A stretch of DNA of 47,964 nucleotides from a virus (Duplodnaviria; Heunggongvirae; Uroviricota; Caudoviricetes). Where the stretch lies: IMG/VR virus record IMGVR_UViG_645951848_000002. One strand, given 5' to 3'. Position numbers and translations under genes: made by a program. Positions within the stretch are counted from its first letter, which is position 1. The number at the start of each line of letters is the position of its first letter. The notes under the pieces were generated by a model. The model made no database searches and was not told the origin of the DNA. It saw only the letters and a program-made list of their open reading frames with translations. Positions 8,726 through 26,231 of this stretch are shown piece by piece.

Positions 8726-10591
8726 CTAATTTGTTATTTGTACATAATTTTTTAATTCTGCCATTATTTTTTGTTTAGACATTTCTGCAGTTTTTTCTAA
8801 ATCCGCTTCATTTTTTATTATGACTCCACCCATATTAAGATTTACTTGAGGAGAAAAATTAGTAGTTGCTGCTATAGGTGCTTTGACACCTAAATCTGCA
8901 AAAGCTTTTTCATATTCAGATTTTGGCTTTTTAGGTATAGGAGAATTTAATGAATTTACACTTTTATTTTTTATTAAAGTTTCTTGTCGTTTTAGATCTT
9001 CAGGAGTTAATCCAAGAGCACTTAATCCTATTGTATTATTTTTAAGTCTATTTAATTGTGACTCGTCTAAAGATAAAACTATCTGATTTTTTTCGATTTC
9101 AATTTGTTTTTGATAATCTTCAGATTTCCAACCTCTCATTTTACTTTCTCTTTCAACGTCTAATCTAGCTTGTTTATCAGCTTCTTCTCTAGAATACCCT
9201 TGCTTCATATATTTATTAGTGTATTGTGAAATTTTAACTCCATCAGCAGCACTTTTTGATAATCCAGTCTTATTATCAATCCATCTTCCAAGTTTCCAAC
9301 CTCCAAATGCACCCACAACTGGTAATCCTGCACCAGCAAATATTGATTCTGCCATTGCTGCTACTTTTAGTGCAGCAAAACCTTGTATAGCTTCAGATAA
9401 AAAATTAAAAATTTTATTAAAATAAGCTTCAACATTTTCTGTATTAAAAGTTCCTTTAGAATTCAACTCAGCCATTTTAGAAGTAAACTTATTTATAAAG
9501 TCAACTGCTGTTGGAGCCAACCCTTCTCCTATTGATATTTTTAAATCTTCAACAGCACTTCTAAATTGAGCTAGTTTATCTTTTGTGTTATCACTCATTT
9601 CTTTTGCAAATCTATCTGTAGCACCTGTTGCATTTTTTATAGCATTTTCTGCTTTTTCTACCCCTTCTTTCGAAGTTCCTAATAAACTATTCATTACTTT
9701 TAAACCTTCAGAGCCTGCTATTGTAGTCAAAAATAAATTTCTTTGCTCATCACTCATCTGTGCTAGTTTAGGCTTTAATTCTTCTAAAATTTTTCTTAAT
9801 CCTTTAAACTTACCATTGTTATCATAAAGAGTTACTCCAAGCTTTTTTAAAGCAGCATCCATATCTGGAGTTGTTTTTGAAAGTCTTGCATAAATTGATG
9901 CTAAGTTTCTTCCTGCTATAGAACCTTTAAGCCCACTATCTGCTAATAATCCTAGAATAATATTTGTTTCTTCTAAACTTTCAAAATTTCTTGAAGTTGA
10001 TGCAACATACTTATAAGCTTCTCCTAGTTGTGCAATACTTGTATTTGTATTGTTTGCTGTTGCGGCCATAACATCCATAAATCTATCAGCATCTTGCAAT
10101 GTTAATCCAAAAGCACTTATATTATCAGTAAGAAGGTCTGATGTACTAGCTAAATCTTCTCCAGATGCAATAGAAAGTTTTAAAAGTTTAGGTGTCATTT
10201 CCAGTACTTCATTAGTTTTCATTCCAGCCATAGCTTGATACATTTGAGCTTGTGCTACTTCTTGTGCTGTAAATCTTGTACTTCTCCCAAGTTCTCTTGT
10301 TTGAGTCATTAGCATATTTTCTTCAGCAGCTGTTGCTCCCATAATAGCTTTGTTTCTTCTGACTTGATCCTCTAAATCTGCAAATGCTGTTAAAGAGCTT
10401 CCAGCTATAGCACCTAATCCAACTAATCCTCCTGCAGCAACAGCTCCAAATTTATTTAAACCACTATTAACCTTTTCCCAGTTCATAGATTTAGCTTTTT
10501 GATAAAGTCCAGCAAGCCCTTTTTCGGCTTTATTTATAACTGCAGTAAATTTATCTTTAAGTTCTAGTCTAGCACTTAGTACATGTTCCAA
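8726..10591 (-). CDS. Tail tape measure protein (TP901 family)
   Basis: TRFTAQEVAQAQMYQAMAG, GIKG-like GLKGSIAGRNL, Ala/Gly-rich helical sequence. Confidence 0.92.
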   Translation of the reverse strand: MEHVLSARLELKDKFTAVINKAEKGLAGLYQKAKSMNWEKVNSGLNKFGAVAAGGLVGLGAIAGSSLTAFADLEDQVRRNKAIMGATAAEENMLMTQTRELGRSTRFTAQEVAQAQMYQAMAGMKTNEVLEMTPKLLKLSIASGEDLASTSDLLTDNISAFGLTLQDADRFMDVMAATANNTNTSIAQLGEAYKYVASTSRNFESLEETNIILGLLADSGLKGSIAGRNLASIYARLSKTTPDMDAALKKLGVTLYDNNGKFKGLRKILEELKPKLAQMSDEQRNLFLTTIAGSEGLKVMNSLLGTSKEGVEKAENAIKNATGATDRFAKEMSDNTKDKLAQFRSAVEDLKISIGEGLAPTAVDFINKFTSKMAELNSKGTFNTENVEAYFNKIFNFLSEAIQGFAALKVAAMAESIFAGAGLPVVGAFGGWKLGRWIDNKTGLSKSAADGVKISQYTNKYMKQGYSREEADKQARLDVERESKMRGWKSEDYQKQIEIEKNQIVLSLDESQLNRLKNNTIGLSALGLTPEDLKRQETLIKNKSVNSLNSPIPKKPKSEYEKAFADLGVKAPIAATTNFSPQVNLNMGGVIIKNEADLEKTAEMSKQKIMAELKNYVQITN

Positions 10592-18730: not shown

Positions 18731-20536
18731 CTACTCACTTCCCTTTTTATAAATATTATATTCTCTTTCTATTAGTTTACCCACTCTTTGAGATAATTCT
18801 CTTGGGTTAGGATTATTGCAGTATTCGCTCCATCCTTCAGCTATAGTTTCTTTTATATTAATTTCATCTAAATTATTAAAAATAGAATATTCTGATAAAA
18901 ATTTTCCTTTTTCTTTTTTATTTTCCTCTAATATTTCTATCATTTCTTTTTTATTTCTTATTCCTAAAAAACTATCCAACTGATGACCAAATTCATGATC
19001 AAAAACAGCTTTTACAGTATCACAACTAACAGGATGCCATTTTACATTAACTTGTATTTTAAGAGATTCTGCTACTTCTTCATAATTTTTAAAGTGCAAA
19101 CTATTCATAGTTATTCCTTGATATTTTGCCCTTATCATATTTATAGGATCTTTATTATCTTTATCTATGAATAATGAAACTGCCATTGCATTTTTGTTTA
19201 TAATAATCTTATACTCTCTTTTTACATATTCTAAAGAATCTATAATAGCTTCTTTTGAAAATCCTGCTTTTCTTAAATCATTTTCAATTTCTTGAAGAAT
19301 TAATTTATTTCTAATTTGAGTAGAACCTACAAATTTTATATTTTCAACTACTTCAGGGAATTTTTCTTTCATATCATACAAACCTTTATTCCATTCATTA
19401 GCACATCTTATATCTATCCCTGTATAGTCAGCTCTTAGTCCTAGCTTTTCAGCAAATTCATTAGCTTCTTTTATTGAACTTGCTTCTTTAAATTCATTTA
19501 TACTCCTATTTTCATTATTTGTCAATACATCATTACTATTAGAATCATCTAAAGTATAATTATTCTTTTCTATTTCTTCTCTACCTTGTTTAACTAAGCT
19601 TTCATAATCAATAATTGGGATAGTCGTGCTTCTGCATCTTGGGTGCATAGGTGGATAATTTAATCCAACAGCTATATTTTTTATTTCAAATATATTACCA
19701 TGTAATTCAGAGCAAATTTGACTTGTTCTACTATCTAAAGTAGCACTGAACTCATATTTTTCTATTCCAGCTTCTTTATATCCATCAAGTGTAGCTTGAT
19801 TCAAAACATAATTAACTTCAGTTCTTAGAAGTCTTTCAACATCATTTTTTTTAGCTGTTTCAAATCTTTCAGAAACTCTTTTAGTCATAGTTTTAAGATT
19901 AATCCCTTGTATCATACCATTAACTATTTCTTGCTTAACTGTTTCTGCTAGTTTATCTGTATTGCTCCAAAGCCTCTGAGAAAAATTGGCACCACTCCAA
20001 GGTTTATCCAGGACTGTTTTTATTTTATCTCTACTGACAACAGGATTAATACCTAAGTCCTTTGTTACTTCTATGAAAGTATCTCTATAAACTGATGTTA
20101 AAGTATTCTTAGCATTATCATCAACTCCAAATATCAACTTAGTAAGCTCCATATCAATTTGAGTTTTAAGACTATCTAATCTACTTATACGACTTTTAGC
20201 AGATAACGTTTCAATTTCTAAATATAATTTTTGTGCTTGTAAAGGTGCATTCTTTAAAAGTTTGTTATATTCTTTCATATAATCATGTAAATCTTTTTTC
20301 CAAACTTTGTAATCATCACCTTTTAAATGTTTCAAAGCTTCATTATAATTTAGAATATTATCATTCATATAAGTTGTAGTTATTCTGCTAATTTCTTTAA
20401 TTATATCCTGTTTAGCTTTTGAAAGTGCTATTTGATACTCTTTTTCAATATCCTGTATTGTAGTAAATGCCTTAGCTTCTCTTTTAATTTGTCTTTCTTC
20501 CCAATAATCTCTATTCTTTTGAGCCATTAGCACCAA
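18731..20536 (-). CDS. Minor capsid protein (SPP1 gp7/MuF) fused to a C-terminal zinc metallopeptidase-like domain
   Basis: PWSGANFSQRLW, RLLRTE, ATLDSRTS.IC, NYPPMHPRCRST; C-terminal HEFGH and ETIAEGW. Confidence 0.85.
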   Translation of the reverse strand: MVLMAQKNRDYWEERQIKREAKAFTTIQDIEKEYQIALSKAKQDIIKEISRITTTYMNDNILNYNEALKHLKGDDYKVWKKDLHDYMKEYNKLLKNAPLQAQKLYLEIETLSAKSRISRLDSLKTQIDMELTKLIFGVDDNAKNTLTSVYRDTFIEVTKDLGINPVVSRDKIKTVLDKPWSGANFSQRLWSNTDKLAETVKQEIVNGMIQGINLKTMTKRVSERFETAKKNDVERLLRTEVNYVLNQATLDGYKEAGIEKYEFSATLDSRTSQICSELHGNIFEIKNIAVGLNYPPMHPRCRSTTIPIIDYESLVKQGREEIEKNNYTLDDSNSNDVLTNNENRSINEFKEASSIKEANEFAEKLGLRADYTGIDIRCANEWNKGLYDMKEKFPEVVENIKFVGSTQIRNKLILQEIENDLRKAGFSKEAIIDSLEYVKREYKIIINKNAMAVSLFIDKDNKDPINMIRAKYQGITMNSLHFKNYEEVAESLKIQVNVKWHPVSCDTVKAVFDHEFGHQLDSFLGIRNKKEMIEILEENKKEKGKFLSEYSIFNNLDEINIKETIAEGWSEYCNNPNPRELSQRVGKLIEREYNIYKKGSE

Positions 20537-21827
20537 CTCCTAATGGAGTGTTCATATCTTTCATTATATTAATATCTTCTTCAGCTTTTATTTTTTCTAA
20601 CTCTCCTTTTGCATCTTCTACGAAAGGCAATGTAGATAAAATAGTTTCATGAGATACTATTCCTTGTAATTTTTGAGCGGTATCTGCTGCTTCAACCAAA
20701 TTCTTTGGAACATTTCTAGTAAAGACTTTTTGAATATCAGTAGATTTTATTTTTAAGTTATGAAAATCTATCATAAGTTCTAATCTTTGATTAATAGCCC
20801 TTTTAAAATACATTTCCTTTTGTGCTGCTAATTGTTCCAAAGCTAATAACTTATATCCAAGTGCAACTCCTGAGCTATTTCCACTAAACTCTTTGTCTTG
20901 CATGTCTGGTATCATAGAAAATTTATGAATATCCTGATTTAATCTATTTTTATTGTTTTGAGCATAGTTATCATTAACTTGTTTAACAAGCCATTTAGCA
21001 TCACCTTGCTCATTAATAAGCATAACTTTATTTTTATTCATTCTTTCTAGTTCTTCATCAGTAGTTCCACCCATATTAACCAAAACTAAGTATGCATCTG
21101 TAAAATCTTTCATATCATCAATAGCAGTTGAAGTAGCTTCGTTATAACCATCTATCAAAGAAATTACATTTTTAAAATCTCCGTTAGCCCTTTTATTGTT
21201 TAAGAACTCAACAATTGGGACTTGGTTAAATCCGTGTAGTTTAGTTTCTCTTATTACAGTTGGAACTTCTTTTTTATCAGTGTCAGTTATATATTCATAA
21301 GTCGTAATGTTTTTATTATCATAAACTTCTAATTTATAAACCCATTTATTTTCTTTATTTTTAGTTTTATCCCATCTAACAGCTGCAATTATTTCTTTTT
21401 TTACTGTATTATCTCTTAATATAAAACAATCACGAGGATCTACAACTACATTTCCAATAGTATTATCCACATTTTTATACCATAACTCATAAGATTTACC
21501 AAAAATACTACAATTTTGAGAATGCTCAAAATTTTCTTGTTGCTCTTCTTCTGTTGCTAAATATTCAGATAACTTTTCAAAATCTTTTTTTAACTTATCG
21601 TCTTGTAAAGCATAAGAAATAGGTTTTCCTAAGAAATAGGCTGTTGCAATAGTTGCAATGTATTCTGGATAATTATTAATCAACTTAGTATCTTTTTTCT
21701 TATTGCTTCTATCTTTCTTATTCAAAATATTATGTTTTCCACTATAATAATCTTCCATCTTTTGAAGTTCTGGTAATTCATTTTTTATAAATGCCTCCAG
21801 TGCTTCTTTTAAATCTTCTACAGTCAT
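20511..21827 (-). CDS. Portal protein (SPP1 gp6-like)
   Basis: YY.GKHNIL, YFLGKPI, NRANGDF-like segment, FSGNSSGVAL.YKL, SHETILS.LPFV motifs. Confidence 0.92.
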   Translation of the reverse strand: MTVEDLKEALEAFIKNELPELQKMEDYYSGKHNILNKKDRSNKKKDTKLINNYPEYIATIATAYFLGKPISYALQDDKLKKDFEKLSEYLATEEEQQENFEHSQNCSIFGKSYELWYKNVDNTIGNVVVDPRDCFILRDNTVKKEIIAAVRWDKTKNKENKWVYKLEVYDNKNITTYEYITDTDKKEVPTVIRETKLHGFNQVPIVEFLNNKRANGDFKNVISLIDGYNEATSTAIDDMKDFTDAYLVLVNMGGTTDEELERMNKNKVMLINEQGDAKWLVKQVNDNYAQNNKNRLNQDIHKFSMIPDMQDKEFSGNSSGVALGYKLLALEQLAAQKEMYFKRAINQRLELMIDFHNLKIKSTDIQKVFTRNVPKNLVEAADTAQKLQGIVSHETILSTLPFVEDAKGELEKIKAEEDINIMKDMNTPLGVGANGSKE

Positions 21828-21840
21828 TAATCCTCCTCTC

Positions 21841-23256
21841 TTATCTTATTCCTAAAACATTTCTATCTATTGTTCTCATTTCATTTCTATTTATTGTCTT
21901 TTCAGCAACACCAGTTAAAGCATCAGGTCCATCATCGTGTTTGTTTTTTCCTTCCTTCTGATAAGAAATAATATCTTTTGCAAATTCACTCCATTTATTT
22001 TTCCAATCAACAGGCATATAGATATTATTATTTACCCAAGCACTATTTGATAATATTCTTGCTATTTTATTTCCAGATTGATGGAACCATTTAACAACTG
22101 TTTTATAATTTCCTTTATCTCTTGTAATTCTTTCAATGTTTCTTGCGAATGCTCTACCACCATTGTTGCTTTCTATATCTGCAATATTTACATTAAACTT
22201 TTTATATGCTTCTGCAACCATAGGTTCTGTTATTTCCATAGCTTCTTTGGTATAGATAACATCTAGTATATAAGCACTATCTTTGCAATCTGCATAAATG
22301 ATATTACATAAAAAATCATCTCCAGTATCAGCTGTATCACAATAGGCAGATATTTTAACAATCTTTTCTTTTGGTAAATCTACATAAGTTTTAAATTCAT
22401 TGTATAATCTACCTTTTATATCTATTGGCTCTTGCTGGTAGTTGGCATATACAATTTCTTTTGCCATATTCTTAGTTTTAAACTCAAAGTCCTCTAATGA
22501 TAATGTTCCTTCATCAAGTGGAGTTCCATCATCATTGATAGCTTTATAATTTATATGAACCACATCATCATAATTAGATAAAATAAAACCAGCTAGGTCA
22601 TTACTTGCCCACCTGGTCATTATGATTATTAATTTAAAACCTTTTTCTGTTCTTGATAACATAGTATTAGTAAACCAATCAATATGCTTTTCAAGTACAT
22701 TAGAGTTATATGCTTCCTTAGAGTTTTTTATTAAGTCATCTATAACTATTAAATCTGCTCCAAATCCTGTTGCAGTTCCTGTTGGAGATGTAGCCAAATA
22801 ATTTGCAACTTGACTTCCTTCCAAAGCCCACTTGTTCATTGAGGCTTCTCCATACTTTATTTTAGTATCAGGAAATATATCTCTATAAACTGTTACTCCT
22901 TGAGTCTGTTCTGTTGCTATCATATCTCTTACTTGCTTAGCAAATATAGAAGAAAGAGTTTCATTATATGATCCTGTCATAATTTTTAATTTGTTATTTC
23001 TTCCTAGTAGCCATTGAACAAATAAGGTTGCTGTGTAAGATTTACCAAATCAGAGTCGAGGGGGCATATTAATAACTAATATCTTTTTATTAGAATCAAT
23101 AAAACTTTGCAACTGATTACATAAATCTTTTAAATATTCTTTTCTATCATTGTAAAAATCTTTCTTTCCTAGTAATTTACAATAATACCAAAAATCTCTC
23201 CTAGCTAATTCTTTCTTAGCTTCTAATTTTATTAATTCTTTATCATACACCCCCAC
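21841..23256 (-). CDS. terL: Terminase large subunit with an in-frame TGA at 23050-23052 (ORF track splits it into 23050-23256 and 21841-22980)
   Basis: One continuous frame: MPPRL*FGKSY (Walker A), LIVIDD (Walker B), DTADTGDD and HDDGPDAL (nuclease). Confidence 0.9.
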
Positions 23257-23266
23257 AACACCTCCT

Positions 23267-23659
23267 TTAATCTTTTATTATTTCTTTTAATTCATCTGTA
23301 GTAAGTCCATTAAATGGATTGGAGTTTATATTTCCATTTACCTCAACCTTTTGAGTATACTCTCCATCCATTTTGTTTAATATATCTAGTGCTTTTAATC
23401 TATCTGTATCTTTAACAGCTCCATCTTTTATCATACTTGTTAAAAATTCTCTTCTCTCTATTGCTGTCATAATTCTATTGCCTTTTGCTTTTTCTTGTAG
23501 TTCTTCAATATACCCACTTATACCCACACTTTTCATAAGAGTATGTATTCTATTTTTTGCATAATACTCACTATATCCAGCCTTGGTTGCAGCTTCAGTA
23601 GCATTTCCAGATGCCACATAAAACTCACAGAAAGATTTTTGTCTTGCATTTAATTTCAA
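23267..23659 (-). CDS. terS: Terminase small subunit
   Basis: LNARQKSFCEFYVASGNATEAATKAGYS, DRLKALDILNKM; TTG start after GGAGGTG. Confidence 0.9.
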   Translation of the reverse strand: MKLNARQKSFCEFYVASGNATEAATKAGYSEYYAKNRIHTLMKSVGISGYIEELQEKAKGNRIMTAIERREFLTSMIKDGAVKDTDRLKALDILNKMDGEYTQKVEVNGNINSNPFNGLTTDELKEIIKD

Positions 23660-23695: not shown

Positions 23696-23781
23696 TGGCG
23701 GAGAGTACAGGACTCGAACCTATAAGTCCATCAGGACAACAGTTTAGCAGACTGCTCATTTACCAATTAATGTAACTCTCC
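23696..23781 (-). tRNA. tRNA-Ser(GCT)
   Basis: GGAGAGT/ACTCTCC acceptor, anticodon loop CTGCTAA, long variable arm GTCC-TGAT-GGAC, TTCGAGT T-loop, encoded GCCA. Confidence 0.9.
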
Positions 23782-24184: not shown

Positions 24185-24625
24185 CTAAAATTCTATTAAT
24201 CTTTGTGCCTTAAAATGGACTTTTAAAGCTCCTAGTATTCTATTTCTCATTTTGTATGTGCTAGTCACGTGTACTTCTAGTTTCTCTGCTATTTCTTCAT
24301 ATGTCAACCCCTGAAAGTATTTTAGCTCAATGAAATTATAGTCTTTATTATCTTTCACCATATTCAAGCACTCATCTATTCTGAATAACATTTCTCTATA
24401 ACGACTTATGTTATTCGATATTCTTTGCTTCAACTCCTCTATTTGTTCATACTCACTTTTTATTTCATACCCATTTCCCCCTTGCCCTCCAACACCACAG
24501 CATTTTTTTAGTTGTGGATTAGCTAGATGCTCAGTTTCTTCTTTAATCCTGTTTTTATACTTGGGATAACTGTATAAAACATCTTCAATTTCTTTTAATA
24601 TTATTCTTTGTTCCTGCGTTGCCAA
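24185..24625 (-). CDS. Late transcriptional activator (RinA/ArpU-like)
   Basis: IELKYFQGLTYEEIAEKL..HVTSTYKMRNRIL helix-turn-helix; position just before the packaging genes. Confidence 0.75.
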   Translation of the reverse strand: MATQEQRIILKEIEDVLYSYPKYKNRIKEETEHLANPQLKKCCGVGGQGGNGYEIKSEYEQIEELKQRISNNISRYREMLFRIDECLNMVKDNKDYNFIELKYFQGLTYEEIAEKLEVHVTSTYKMRNRILGALKVHFKAQRLIEF

Positions 24626-24639
24626 TCTGTATCCCTCCT

Positions 24640-25314
24640 TTATTTTAATTTTAAAAGTCCACTTACTCCAAAACCAGCATATTTGTTAACTAAATCAATA
24701 GTTTTTTCTAACAATTCAAAATCATTTTCAAACTTCTTTCTAACTTTTATAAAATTATCTATAATTTTATCTTGTCTTTCTATAAGCGGTATAGTTATTG
24801 GAATATGCTCAAAATCTAATCTAGATAGTCTCTTGACTTTTTCTCCAACCACTTTATCGTACACGTATTGTCTTACTATATCTTTATAGTTAAGATAAAA
24901 TGTTATGTATTTCAGATTTACTGCATCTTCAAATTTTTCTTTTAGTGTTAGAATAGCTACATTCCCATTTATTGCAGCAGGGATATCATTTTCATAGAAG
25001 ATACATCTTCCAATATCTTCATAGTCAAAATCTTCTAAATTTACTAATATTTGTCCTTTGTTAATTTTGTCAGCTCTGTTGTAAGCTTCACTATTAATTT
25101 TTGTTATTTCTTCTACAAAACAATCATATTTTCTAGATATATCCACATAAAATATAGCAGGTTCTCCATTTTCGACGATATCTCTTTTTGTAAAAATATC
25201 TTTTTTAGACATATATTTTATATTAAAAATATCTGAAATTACTATCTCTGTGCATCCGAAAACAAAGTTAGCAATTTTGATTGTTTCTCTAATAAAGTCA
25301 TCTCGTTCTTGCAT
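24640..25314 (-). CDS. Type I RM specificity subunit-like protein (HsdS half, single TRD)
   Basis: KGQILV, IG, AING.VAIL, YI.FYLN, LSRLDFEHIPITIPLIERQDKII conserved-region pattern. Confidence 0.7.
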   Translation of the reverse strand: MQERDDFIRETIKIANFVFGCTEIVISDIFNIKYMSKKDIFTKRDIVENGEPAIFYVDISRKYDCFVEEITKINSEAYNRADKINKGQILVNLEDFDYEDIGRCIFYENDIPAAINGNVAILTLKEKFEDAVNLKYITFYLNYKDIVRQYVYDKVVGEKVKRLSRLDFEHIPITIPLIERQDKIIDNFIKVRKKFENDFELLEKTIDLVNKYAGFGVSGLLKLK

Positions 25315-26231
25315 CTTTTCTTGCTCCTCATTCTATTTTCAAATTTTTCTATAATAGCTTTTAGCCTTCTAATATTTCCAATAAAGTCTATATTTGCATT
25401 GCATTCTTTAATTAAGAATAAATCTAACTCTAAATTTTTTTCTACTCTACCTATCCATAAGTCTGTTATTTGCCTATTTAGTGCATTTATGTCAACTTCT
25501 TCTACTTCTTTTTCTTCTCTTATTTGCTCCCAACGATACTCACTCGCATCTAGCTTCCAGCCATCTGAAATTATAATTTTATCTATCTTACAATCGTATA
25601 ATTCCCTATAAACTGCTTCAGTTGTCTTGTTTTTGTCGACAACTAAGAATAAAACATCTATAGAAGTATCCGTAAATGCATTACTTATAACATTTAGTTC
25701 AGCTAGTCTATTTCCAATTAATTCTCTAAACTTTTCTTCTGTTTTTCTATAACCAACCCCTGGAAAAAGTATATAGAAGGCATATCTCTTCGTATATTCA
25801 AGAGATTTTAAAACAAATATATCGTCTACTACCCCCGACTTTTTCCAGCTAAATTGTTTTTGTATGTTCTTTTGTTCCTGTTCTGACAAGTCTTTGAATT
25901 TTAGAGAAAATGGTGGATTCATTATTACACAATCTACTTCAAAATTTTCTCTTTCATATTCAAAAAAACTTTTAACTTCTAATTCTGTGTTTTGAAAGTT
26001 TTGTCTAGCTGAATTAATCGAACTTTCTTGAACATCTACCCCGTATAAGATAGAAGGATTAACAAACTGTTCTAACTGTCCACTTCCAACAGCCCCATCG
26101 AAAACGGTTGGATTTTCTAAGTCGACATATTGTTTAACCTTCTTAGCTACATATTTTCTTAGTTCAGTCCCTGTTATGTACTCTGCCAGTTTCTTAGAGA
26201 CTTCTCTATTGTTATGCTCTTTAAAGCTCAT
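25242..26231 (-). CDS. N6-adenine DNA methyltransferase
   Basis: Motif I DGAVGSG, motif IV MNPPF. Confidence 0.88.
   Translation of the reverse strand: MSFKEHNNREVSKKLAEYITGTELRKYVAKKVKQYVDLENPTVFDGAVGSGQLEQFVNPSILYGVDVQESSINSARQNFQNTELEVKSFFEYERENFEVDCVIMNPPFSLKFKDLSEQEQKNIQKQFSWKKSGVVDDIFVLKSLEYTKRYAFYILFPGVGYRKTEEKFRELIGNRLAELNVISNAFTDTSIDVLFLVVDKNKTTEAVYRELYDCKIDKIIISDGWKLDASEYRWEQIREEKEVEEVDINALNRQITDLWIGRVEKNLELDLFLIKECNANIDFIGNIRRLKAIIEKFENRMRSKKRCKNEMTLLEKQSKLLTLFSDAQR

Follow-up and report, generated by a model that had tools for sequence, protein, structure and literature searches.

The terL gene and its interrupted Walker A loop

The DNA analysed here (hereafter, the window) is the whole stretch of 47,964 nucleotides (nt) deposited as the Caudoviricetes record IMGVR_UViG_645951848_000002, a myovirus-like Fusobacterium prophage with a G+C content of about 28%. 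Its gene for the large terminase subunit, terL, lies on the minus strand (23256..21841) and comprises 471 codons, from a GTG at 23256 to a TAA at 21843-21841, with a single internal stop codon on translation. The stop falls in the Walker A loop (P-loop) of the packaging ATPase, which holds an in-frame TGA and one extra codon: positions 23067..23038 of the minus strand read ATG CCC CCT CGA CTC TGA TTT GGT AAA TCT (M-P-P-R-L-stop-F-G-K-S). A preliminary description of this DNA had reported an in-frame TGA in the Walker A loop of a terL frame that is otherwise intact; the codons and coordinates that it gave are correct, and the gene is on the minus strand. The elements of the gene, and the two genes that flank it, are as follows.

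21841..23256, minus strand: terL, terminase large subunit, with one internal TGA; a +6 hop would yield 469 amino acids (aa) (translation, Pfam)
23050..23256, minus strand: upstream open frame of 68 codons ending in ...NMPPRL and then TGA, the product upon termination; the true start may be the GTG at 23250
23053..23064, minus strand: run of rare codons CCC (23064-23062), CCT (23061-23059), CGA and CTC, as judged from host and prophage codon usage; the ATG before it is at 23067-23065
23056..23058, minus strand: CGA, alternative candidate take-off codon (tRNA-Arg would re-pair on the UGA that lies 6 nt further on), the same in all 27 distinct sequences
23053..23055, minus strand: CTC, candidate take-off codon by stop-hop geometry (peptidyl-tRNA-Leu in the P site, UGA in the A site), invariant in the same 27 sequences
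23050..23052, minus strand: in-frame TGA within the Walker A loop, found in all 36 interrupted loci
23047..23049, minus strand: TTT, candidate landing codon or, if landing is on UGA, the codon decoded first; relatives have TTT or TTC
23038..23046, minus strand: GGT AAA TCT, the G-K-S of Walker A by translation, where decoding must resume in frame
21841..23049, minus strand: downstream coding part from FGKS to the TAA, with Walker B and the nuclease domain and no further lesion
23267..23659, minus strand: terS, small terminase subunit (PHROG 51, E 3.8e-25)
20511..21827, minus strand: portal gene (PHROG 64, E 8e-129), followed by intact head, sheath and tape-measure genes

The position of terL between terS and the portal gene is that of a packaging module, and the head, sheath, tape-measure and integrase genes of the prophage that were tested all match PHROGs and stay open. 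Pfam assigns an N-terminal ATPase domain (PF03237, Terminase_6N; 27.3 bits, cut-off 22; residues 71-247) and a C-terminal RNaseH-like nuclease domain (PF22530; 27.7 bits, cut-off 27) to the TerL product, and PF17289 scores 20 bits, under its cut-off. In a single-sequence search no relatives with solved structures were found, and a profile search against solved structures gave only weak matches at the level of the P-loop, to polyphosphate kinase 2 and one terminase (E 0.58). The closest phage matches of TerL are the Fusobacterium phages phiPaco (76.6% identical) and FNU_1P. G71, K72 and S73 are invariant in alignment A1. In the DNA, CTC TGA splits the loop, and a contiguous Walker A motif of the form PP-x-x-GK[ST] would arise only after a +6 hop.

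Distribution of the interrupted allele

The nearest uninterrupted allele (L026) reads CCT CCA AGA TTT GGT where the window has CCC CCT CGA CTC TGA TTT GGT, the difference being a 15-nt patch with six extra bases (CTC TGA) and three synonymous changes to rare codons. All but one of the 120 best protein database matches, which come from F. polymorphum, F. animalis, F. nucleatum and metagenomes, are uninterrupted proteins of 467-469 aa with the loop PPRFGKS and an identity of 94-98%. The core CGA CTC TGA TTY was found in a total of 36 loci, alongside about 20 uninterrupted relatives; 32 of these loci were long enough for comparison and represent 27 distinct sequences over an 804-nt span. Among the carriers are a second species of the genus (F. 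vincentii ATCC 49256), eight IMG/VR contigs, six of them from isolate genomes, and 22 metagenome contigs; contigs from oral metagenomes, more than 20 in number, are among them. The records contain four sequence variants of the N-terminal fragment of 66-68 aa, with 48 contigs when their listed counts are added up. The clade of the gene tree that includes the window contains 32 interrupted and 16 uninterrupted sequences (48 altogether), and the interrupted allele occurs in differing prophage backgrounds.

Nothing beyond the single in-frame TGA speaks for an error of sequencing or assembly, or for the reading of TGA as a sense codon. An identical core is present in 36 independent assemblies of differing sources. 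TGA serves as the terminator of 9 of 47 prophage open reading frames (ORFs) and of 128 ORFs of the host, and under the standard bacterial code (code 11) the host ORFs are open, as are the 47 prophage ORFs other than terL. Genetic code 4, in which TGA encodes tryptophan, was rejected on the same grounds. An artefact or another code is already refuted by the comparative data, and we give it next to no chance of being correct. The interruption is a conserved natural feature, neither an error nor a one-off; the preliminary description had argued that such a change is not a typical sequencing error, and had named a stop unique to this isolate as a refutation, which the comparison does not bear out. 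A repeat or mobile-element origin of the patch was rejected as well, since no second copy of the 10- to 15-nt patch was found in the 2.6-Mb genome.

Some further observations concern the records of these alleles. Two database artefacts hide the split gene: the 68-aa N-terminal TerL fragment is clustered with an unrelated 130-aa TerS in a protein collection (cluster of P0126), and a JGI gene call (P0097) renders the TGA as W, giving PPRLWFGKS. In two prophages with the interrupted allele (L018:1042-2524 and L019:1042-2524), a Kiwa defence pair (KwaB, KwaA) is located as a moron just upstream of terS.

Loop spacing and the proposed decoding

The spacing of the loop was surveyed in 150 family representatives (50% identity level). 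In the 106 with a readable motif, PP and GK are without exception separated by exactly two residues, the second of which is H, F, M, T, V, S, Y or L; the loop PPRLGKS itself occurs naturally in a Holdemania prophage, where it is encoded by CGA CTC GGT. Because the spacing is invariant in the family, a hop would restore the normal loop, while readthrough, which leaves four residues between PP and GK, would not. The preliminary description had proposed both the canonical spacing, as opposed to the aberrant loop produced by readthrough, and its restoration as PPRLGKS by a +6 hop from CUC to UUU, and on the spacing that each would give the survey agrees with it.

The site has the geometry of a stop-hop, with the stop 3' of the take-off codon and a pairable codon downstream on which landing would restore the frame, in the form of either CUC UGA UUY or CGA...UGA. 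Ribosomes would translate ...N-M-P-P-R-L through very rare codons until UGA occupies the A site. In the first of two possible routes, peptidyl-tRNA-Leu(UAG) would leave CUC and re-pair, by way of a G.U pair at the first position, on the UUY that lies 6 nt further on, a move for which the CUU to UUU shift in the host prfB gene, likewise with a G.U first pair, could serve as a precedent; decoding would then resume at GGU and yield PPRLGKS. Were the tRNA to shift from CUC by only +1, it would face UCU, with which it does not pair, and a non-overlapping move of +6 would be needed. In the second route, peptidyl-tRNA-Arg would leave CGA while the rare CUC is awaited and re-pair on UGA, giving PPRFGKS, the same loop as in the uninterrupted relatives; judged from the codons, this route would fit equally well. 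Without a hop, translation would end with release of the N-terminal peptide of 68 aa, so the packaging ATPase would result from only part of the initiations. Altogether, we consider it probable, with moderate confidence, that an obligatory +6 ribosomal hop restores a canonical Walker A loop, PPRLGKS or PPRFGKS, in an otherwise functional terL.

Two other ways of obtaining a terminase from this gene could be proposed. With an in-frame insert, readthrough by itself would suffice for a full-length protein: tRNA-Trp or tRNA-Cys, as near-cognates, would decode UGA, leading to PPRL-X-FGKS and a working P-loop two residues longer, and this is how the gene call P0097 translated one copy. We regard readthrough as improbable given the two residues between PP and GK in each of the 106 readable homologues; it could not rescue the +1, +7 and +8 inserts at the same loop described below, and it leaves the conserved rare codons CGA and CTC unexplained. 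Neither a suppressor tRNA, nor a tRNA with a UCA anticodon, nor tRNA-Sec was found by ARAGORN in the draft host genome and the window, and there is no downstream hairpin; decoding of UGA by selenocysteine or by a suppressor was rejected for these reasons. Alternatively, an active terminase could be assembled from the N-terminal peptide of 68 aa and a C-terminal protein with its own translation start, and both pieces are indeed conserved and open. This two-piece enzyme is very hard to credit, because the break is inside the P-loop itself and the first in-frame ATG, GTG or TTG after the stop is that of Met-93, a start at which would delete GKS.

Rare codons and tRNAs

According to codon usage in 1406 long host ORFs, CGG is the rarest codon (0.05 per 1000) and CGA the third rarest (0.15), and CCC (0.55) and CTC (0.62) are among the eight rarest. 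AGA accounts for 89% of the host Arg codons and is the codon used at the site by uninterrupted alleles. The other 47 prophage ORFs contain only 3 CGA, 8 CTC and 6 CCC in 10,641 codons, and the only CGA, CTC and CCC of terL are those at the site. The flanking codons are thus as rare as the preliminary description had supposed, and the run of rare codons fits a pause.

ARAGORN predicted 45 tRNAs in the draft genome and one in the window. The anticodons of the host tRNA-Leu species are CAA, UAA and UAG, and those of tRNA-Arg are ACG, UCG, CCU and UCU. The tRNA-Leu(GAG) that had been named for the prfB shift was not found in the draft genome, the reader of CUN codons found there being tRNA-Leu(UAG). 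The prfB precedent invoked along with it is present in the host itself: its prfB gene contains AGGAGG TCT CTT TGA C, a textbook programmed +1 frameshift site (L298:2500-2585, minus strand; G000 C31, near 708.6 kb). Since the host carries this classical site, a CUN-reading tRNA-Leu already re-pairs on UUU with UGA in the A site in this bacterium.

The only tRNA gene of the prophage, tRNA-Ser(GCU) at 23696-23781 (minus strand), is located between a late regulator-like gene (24185-24625) and terS. Phage phiPaco, in which terL is uninterrupted, has a tRNA-Ser at the same place, and no obvious link of the prophage tRNA to the recoding site is seen. Further upstream of the packaging module, a DNA methyltransferase-like gene (25242-26231, minus strand) overlaps an ORF for 224 aa of unknown function (24640-25314, minus strand).

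Other interruptions of the same loop

Interruptions of the P-loop of terL are not confined to the window and its relatives. In F. necrophorum prophages, namely in ATCC 25286 and 5 others, with four distinct IMG/VR or genome loci, the loop has a conserved +1 break and reads CCT CGG TTT C GGG. There are two differing downstream protein variants, and the zero frame ends 8 or 18 codons later. Here tRNA-Phe could slip from UUU to UUC before CGG, the rarest codon of the host of the window. The isolated phage phiPaco is an uninterrupted relative of these prophages. In the Clostridium tetani phage phiCT9441A (L003:1135-1165), the loop reads CGA TAATCGC CAC (+7), and the tRNA on CGA could re-pair on CGC. 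One of the 80 closest IMG/VR relatives of this phage (L286:560-610) has CGA TAGACTGC CAT (+8). Both the +7 and the +8 insert, found in terL genes of Clostridium-type prophages, begin with a stop right after CGA, and each is a singleton among about 80 relatives.

The fourth kind is found in dairy phages. In the Tuc2009-type terL, CCT CCG TAG CTT AGA CAT GGN, an in-frame stop and one codon are placed between PP and RHGKS. The carriers are the Lactococcus phage Tuc2009, the lactococcal phages 98101-98104, 98202-98204, 49801 and the D series, and the Streptococcus thermophilus phages 9874 and CHPC926, about 16 isolated dairy phages besides Tuc2009; in TP901-1, 9871-9873 and others terL is uninterrupted. 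The stop is TAA instead of TAG in D4840, and the next codon is CTA instead of CTT in 9874 (both phages come from dairy whey, according to their records). Since TAG changes to TAA and the neighbouring codon varies, the stop is kept as a stop in this group. In GenBank, the 64-aa N-terminal piece is labelled 'small terminase subunit'. These dairy phages have been isolated and propagated, and the Tuc2009-type insert is therefore compatible with a working terminase. The loci of the two larger groups are as follows.

L007:1496-1520, L035-L038 and L135 (ATCC 25286): F. necrophorum +1 loci, CCT CGG TTT C GGG
L130:1060-1130 (Tuc2009), L129:171-241 (CHPC926), L132, L133 and L294-L297: Tuc2009-type loci

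Thus, four other kinds of interruption affect the same loop in independent lineages, and each could be resolved by re-pairing of the P-site tRNA. Inserts of another type are also present near this position: in the homologues P0153 and P0206, intein-like inserts of about 320 aa follow right after the GK of the P-loop, which makes the P-loop of terL a homing site in this TerL family. In phages 98101 and 49801, the Tuc2009-type insert has HNH genes immediately upstream. By PHROG, no homing endonuclease was found next to the terL of the window among the four upstream genes (terS, the regulator, the ORF of unknown function and the methyltransferase). Small hoppable inserts that spoil a homing target would explain why they cluster at the P-loop; a similar idea of protection from homing has been proposed for T4 gene 60 (PMC5009743). 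Other homologues of 600-890 aa have apparent inserts near query residues 168 and 195.

Maintenance of the interrupted gene

Both halves of the gene are open in every interrupted locus, apart from cuts by contig ends, with at least 66 codons upstream and 393-401 downstream. The sole true exception is L093, a contig with 3.6x coverage in which one nucleotide is inserted behind an A6 run. Among the fetched loci, lesions elsewhere in terL, P-loop breaks aside, were seen in only three (L004, L093 and L169) by a partly automated and imperfect check. For the downstream part of ten distinct interrupted alleles, pairwise comparison gave a synonymous divergence (dS) of 0.16-0.48 and a nonsynonymous divergence (dN) of 0.01-0.04, with their ratio (omega) in the range of 0.03-0.13; pairs with the mosaic L028 gave higher values, up to 0.45. 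Across the 27 distinct sequences, 58% of the degenerate codons are polymorphic, while CCT CGA CTC TGA never varies. The following codon does vary, being TTC in 22 and TTT in 13 of the classified interrupted loci; TTT dominates in uninterrupted relatives. L082, only 76% identical to the window protein, retains CCT CGA CTC TGA TTT exactly while its flanks differ (CCA for CCC, and GGG AAG AGT for GGT AAA TCT). A conserved gap between synonymously variable flanks, with both ORFs maintained, is the pattern expected of bypassing, with the caveat that the alleles recombine. The preliminary description had asked of the site that its core be conserved while neighbouring codons vary and that the downstream half not be decaying, and both hold. 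It had also held that plain-loop close homologues, together with relaxed selection downstream, would point to a simple pseudogene. Of these, the homologues exist, with PPRFGKS instead of the PPRHGKS that had been named, and they recombine with the interrupted alleles; relaxed selection was not observed.

Recombination changes the weight of these values. Interrupted and uninterrupted alleles do not separate in a tree built from the downstream 1161 nt, where well-supported branches force at least nine changes of state; this marks the patch as a polymorphism of a recombining population. Because the two allele classes recombine, dN/dS alone cannot prove that the interrupted genes are expressed, and its use as proof of function was downgraded after the tree had revealed this exchange. 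The interrupted allele could then be a terL null in non-packaging, vertically inherited prophages, the rest of the gene being kept healthy-looking by recombination with incoming functional phages. The frequent exchange between allele classes is in line with this, as is the abundance of uninterrupted PPRFGKS alleles (119 of the 120 best protein matches and 16 of the 48 sequences of the clade), and the phage collection contains no phage isolated from Fusobacterium with the insert, phiPaco and FNU_1P being uninterrupted. However, it would be extraordinary for a lethal allele to reach 32 of the 48 sequences of the clade and to occur in several species and prophage backgrounds. A second lesion was detected only once, in the 3.6x contig, and every structural gene of the window tested by PHROG gave a match and is open. 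Nor is the patch a simple indel, being a specific block of rare codons of 15 nt, and four other insert types strike the same loop, one of them in viable phages. On balance, a defective allele seems unlikely.

Several points weigh against the proposed hop. No stimulatory RNA structure was detected in a region of 141 nt, where the minimum free energy equals that of shuffled sequences (z -0.03) and a take-off stem-loop enclosing the stop, of the T4 gene 60 type, is likewise absent; inspection of the 60 nt upstream by eye revealed nothing resembling a Shine-Dalgarno element. The take-off and landing codons are not identical, and each route requires a first-position G.U pair. UGA is not expected to terminate weakly when the next base is U, and synthetic stop-hops in E. 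coli reporters run at roughly the percent level. The intermixing of alleles on the tree belongs here too, since recombination with functional alleles could keep the flanks looking selected, and the evidence of viability comes from a different insert in different phages. We infer the hop itself, the tRNA responsible, its efficiency and any regulatory use from sequence comparison, and a regulatory 'packaging switch', as suggested in the preliminary description, is speculation.

Relation to known recoding systems

Synthetic stop-hops in E. coli (Weiss, Dunn, Atkins, Gesteland 1987) were reviewed by Atkins et al. 2016 (PMC5009743), who stated that of natural in-frame stop hopping 'no occurences are known'. 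As at the proposed terL site, nine nucleotides specify one amino acid in these constructs, and a P-site peptidyl-tRNA re-pairs on a similar codon past an A-site stop with the frame kept. Unlike the reporters with their matched codons, the terL site is natural, conserved and part of an essential phage gene, and its codons are only near-matched (G.U).

The closest published case is the bypass proposed for the large terminase of the Streptomyces phage Hau3 and prophages, candidates for translational bypassing with 10-nt inserts led by UUA (Smith et al. 2013; PMC10732093). In common with the window, terL carries short non-coding inserts whose flanks are contiguous in relatives, the proposed trigger is an A-site codon that is slow to decode, and the first insert seems to lie within a GxxGK loop, to judge from the printed peptides ...KGWG and KDPLL (PMC10732093). 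The Hau3 inserts differ in shifting the frame, in their rare UUA lead, in the proposed stem-loop and Shine-Dalgarno stimulators, and in belonging to another terminase family and host; the insert of the window is 6 nt long, in frame and stop-containing, with no structure detected.

As proposed for terL, T4 gene 60 has a take-off codon beside a stop, retention of peptidyl-tRNA and a cognate or near-cognate landing in an essential phage gene, with protection against a homing endonuclease as a possible origin. It differs in its 50-nt gap, take-off hairpin, nascent-peptide signal and efficiency near 50%. In prfB, which encodes RF2 and has the classical site in the host, a peptidyl-tRNA-Leu on CUN faces UGA and re-pairs on UUU, as would happen in the Leu route, but the shift is +1 onto an overlapping codon and is aided by a Shine-Dalgarno stimulator. 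The TAG CTT of Tuc2009 resembles the window in the P-loop affected, the TerL family, the 6-nt in-frame stop-containing insert and the existence of uninterrupted sisters (TP901-1 and 9871); it is located one codon earlier, between PP and R, has TAG or TAA as the stop, and the take-off codon would be CCG.

No paper describing the Fusobacterium or Tuc2009-type terL sites was found, in a search with incomplete coverage that is not proof of absence. On terminase combined with bypassing, only the Hau3 work and the recoding review were found; for Fusobacterium, Tuc2009 and 987-group phages, no title or abstract on an interrupted terL was found, and PMC5601072 is silent on one.

Considering all these cases together, we put forward, at about even chances, that the Walker A loop of terL is a recurrent natural site of obligatory short-range hopping. 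Fusobacterium, Clostridium, Lactococcus/Streptococcus and, by the published proposal, Streptomyces phages, which form several unrelated lineages, would have independently fixed stop-containing or frame-breaking inserts of 1 to 10 nt, decoded by P-site re-pairing. Such inserts may be kept because they destroy an intein or homing target, or because they tie the supply of packaging ATPase to the availability of release factor and rare tRNAs.

Implications

If the proposed decoding is correct, CTC TGA in Fusobacterium would be a natural example of the in-frame stop-hop hitherto shown only with synthetic constructs, and short-range bypassing would gain a tractable system, given that Tuc2009 in Lactococcus lactis is genetically accessible. 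Many phage terL genes annotated as split, as pseudogenes or as 'small terminase subunit' would then be intact. This also bears on the practice of calling prophages of Fusobacterium, an oral and tumour-associated bacterium, 'defective' from a broken terminase. It also raises the question of why the P-loop attracts inserts, possibly in connection with immunity to inteins and homing endonucleases or with throttling of DNA packaging.

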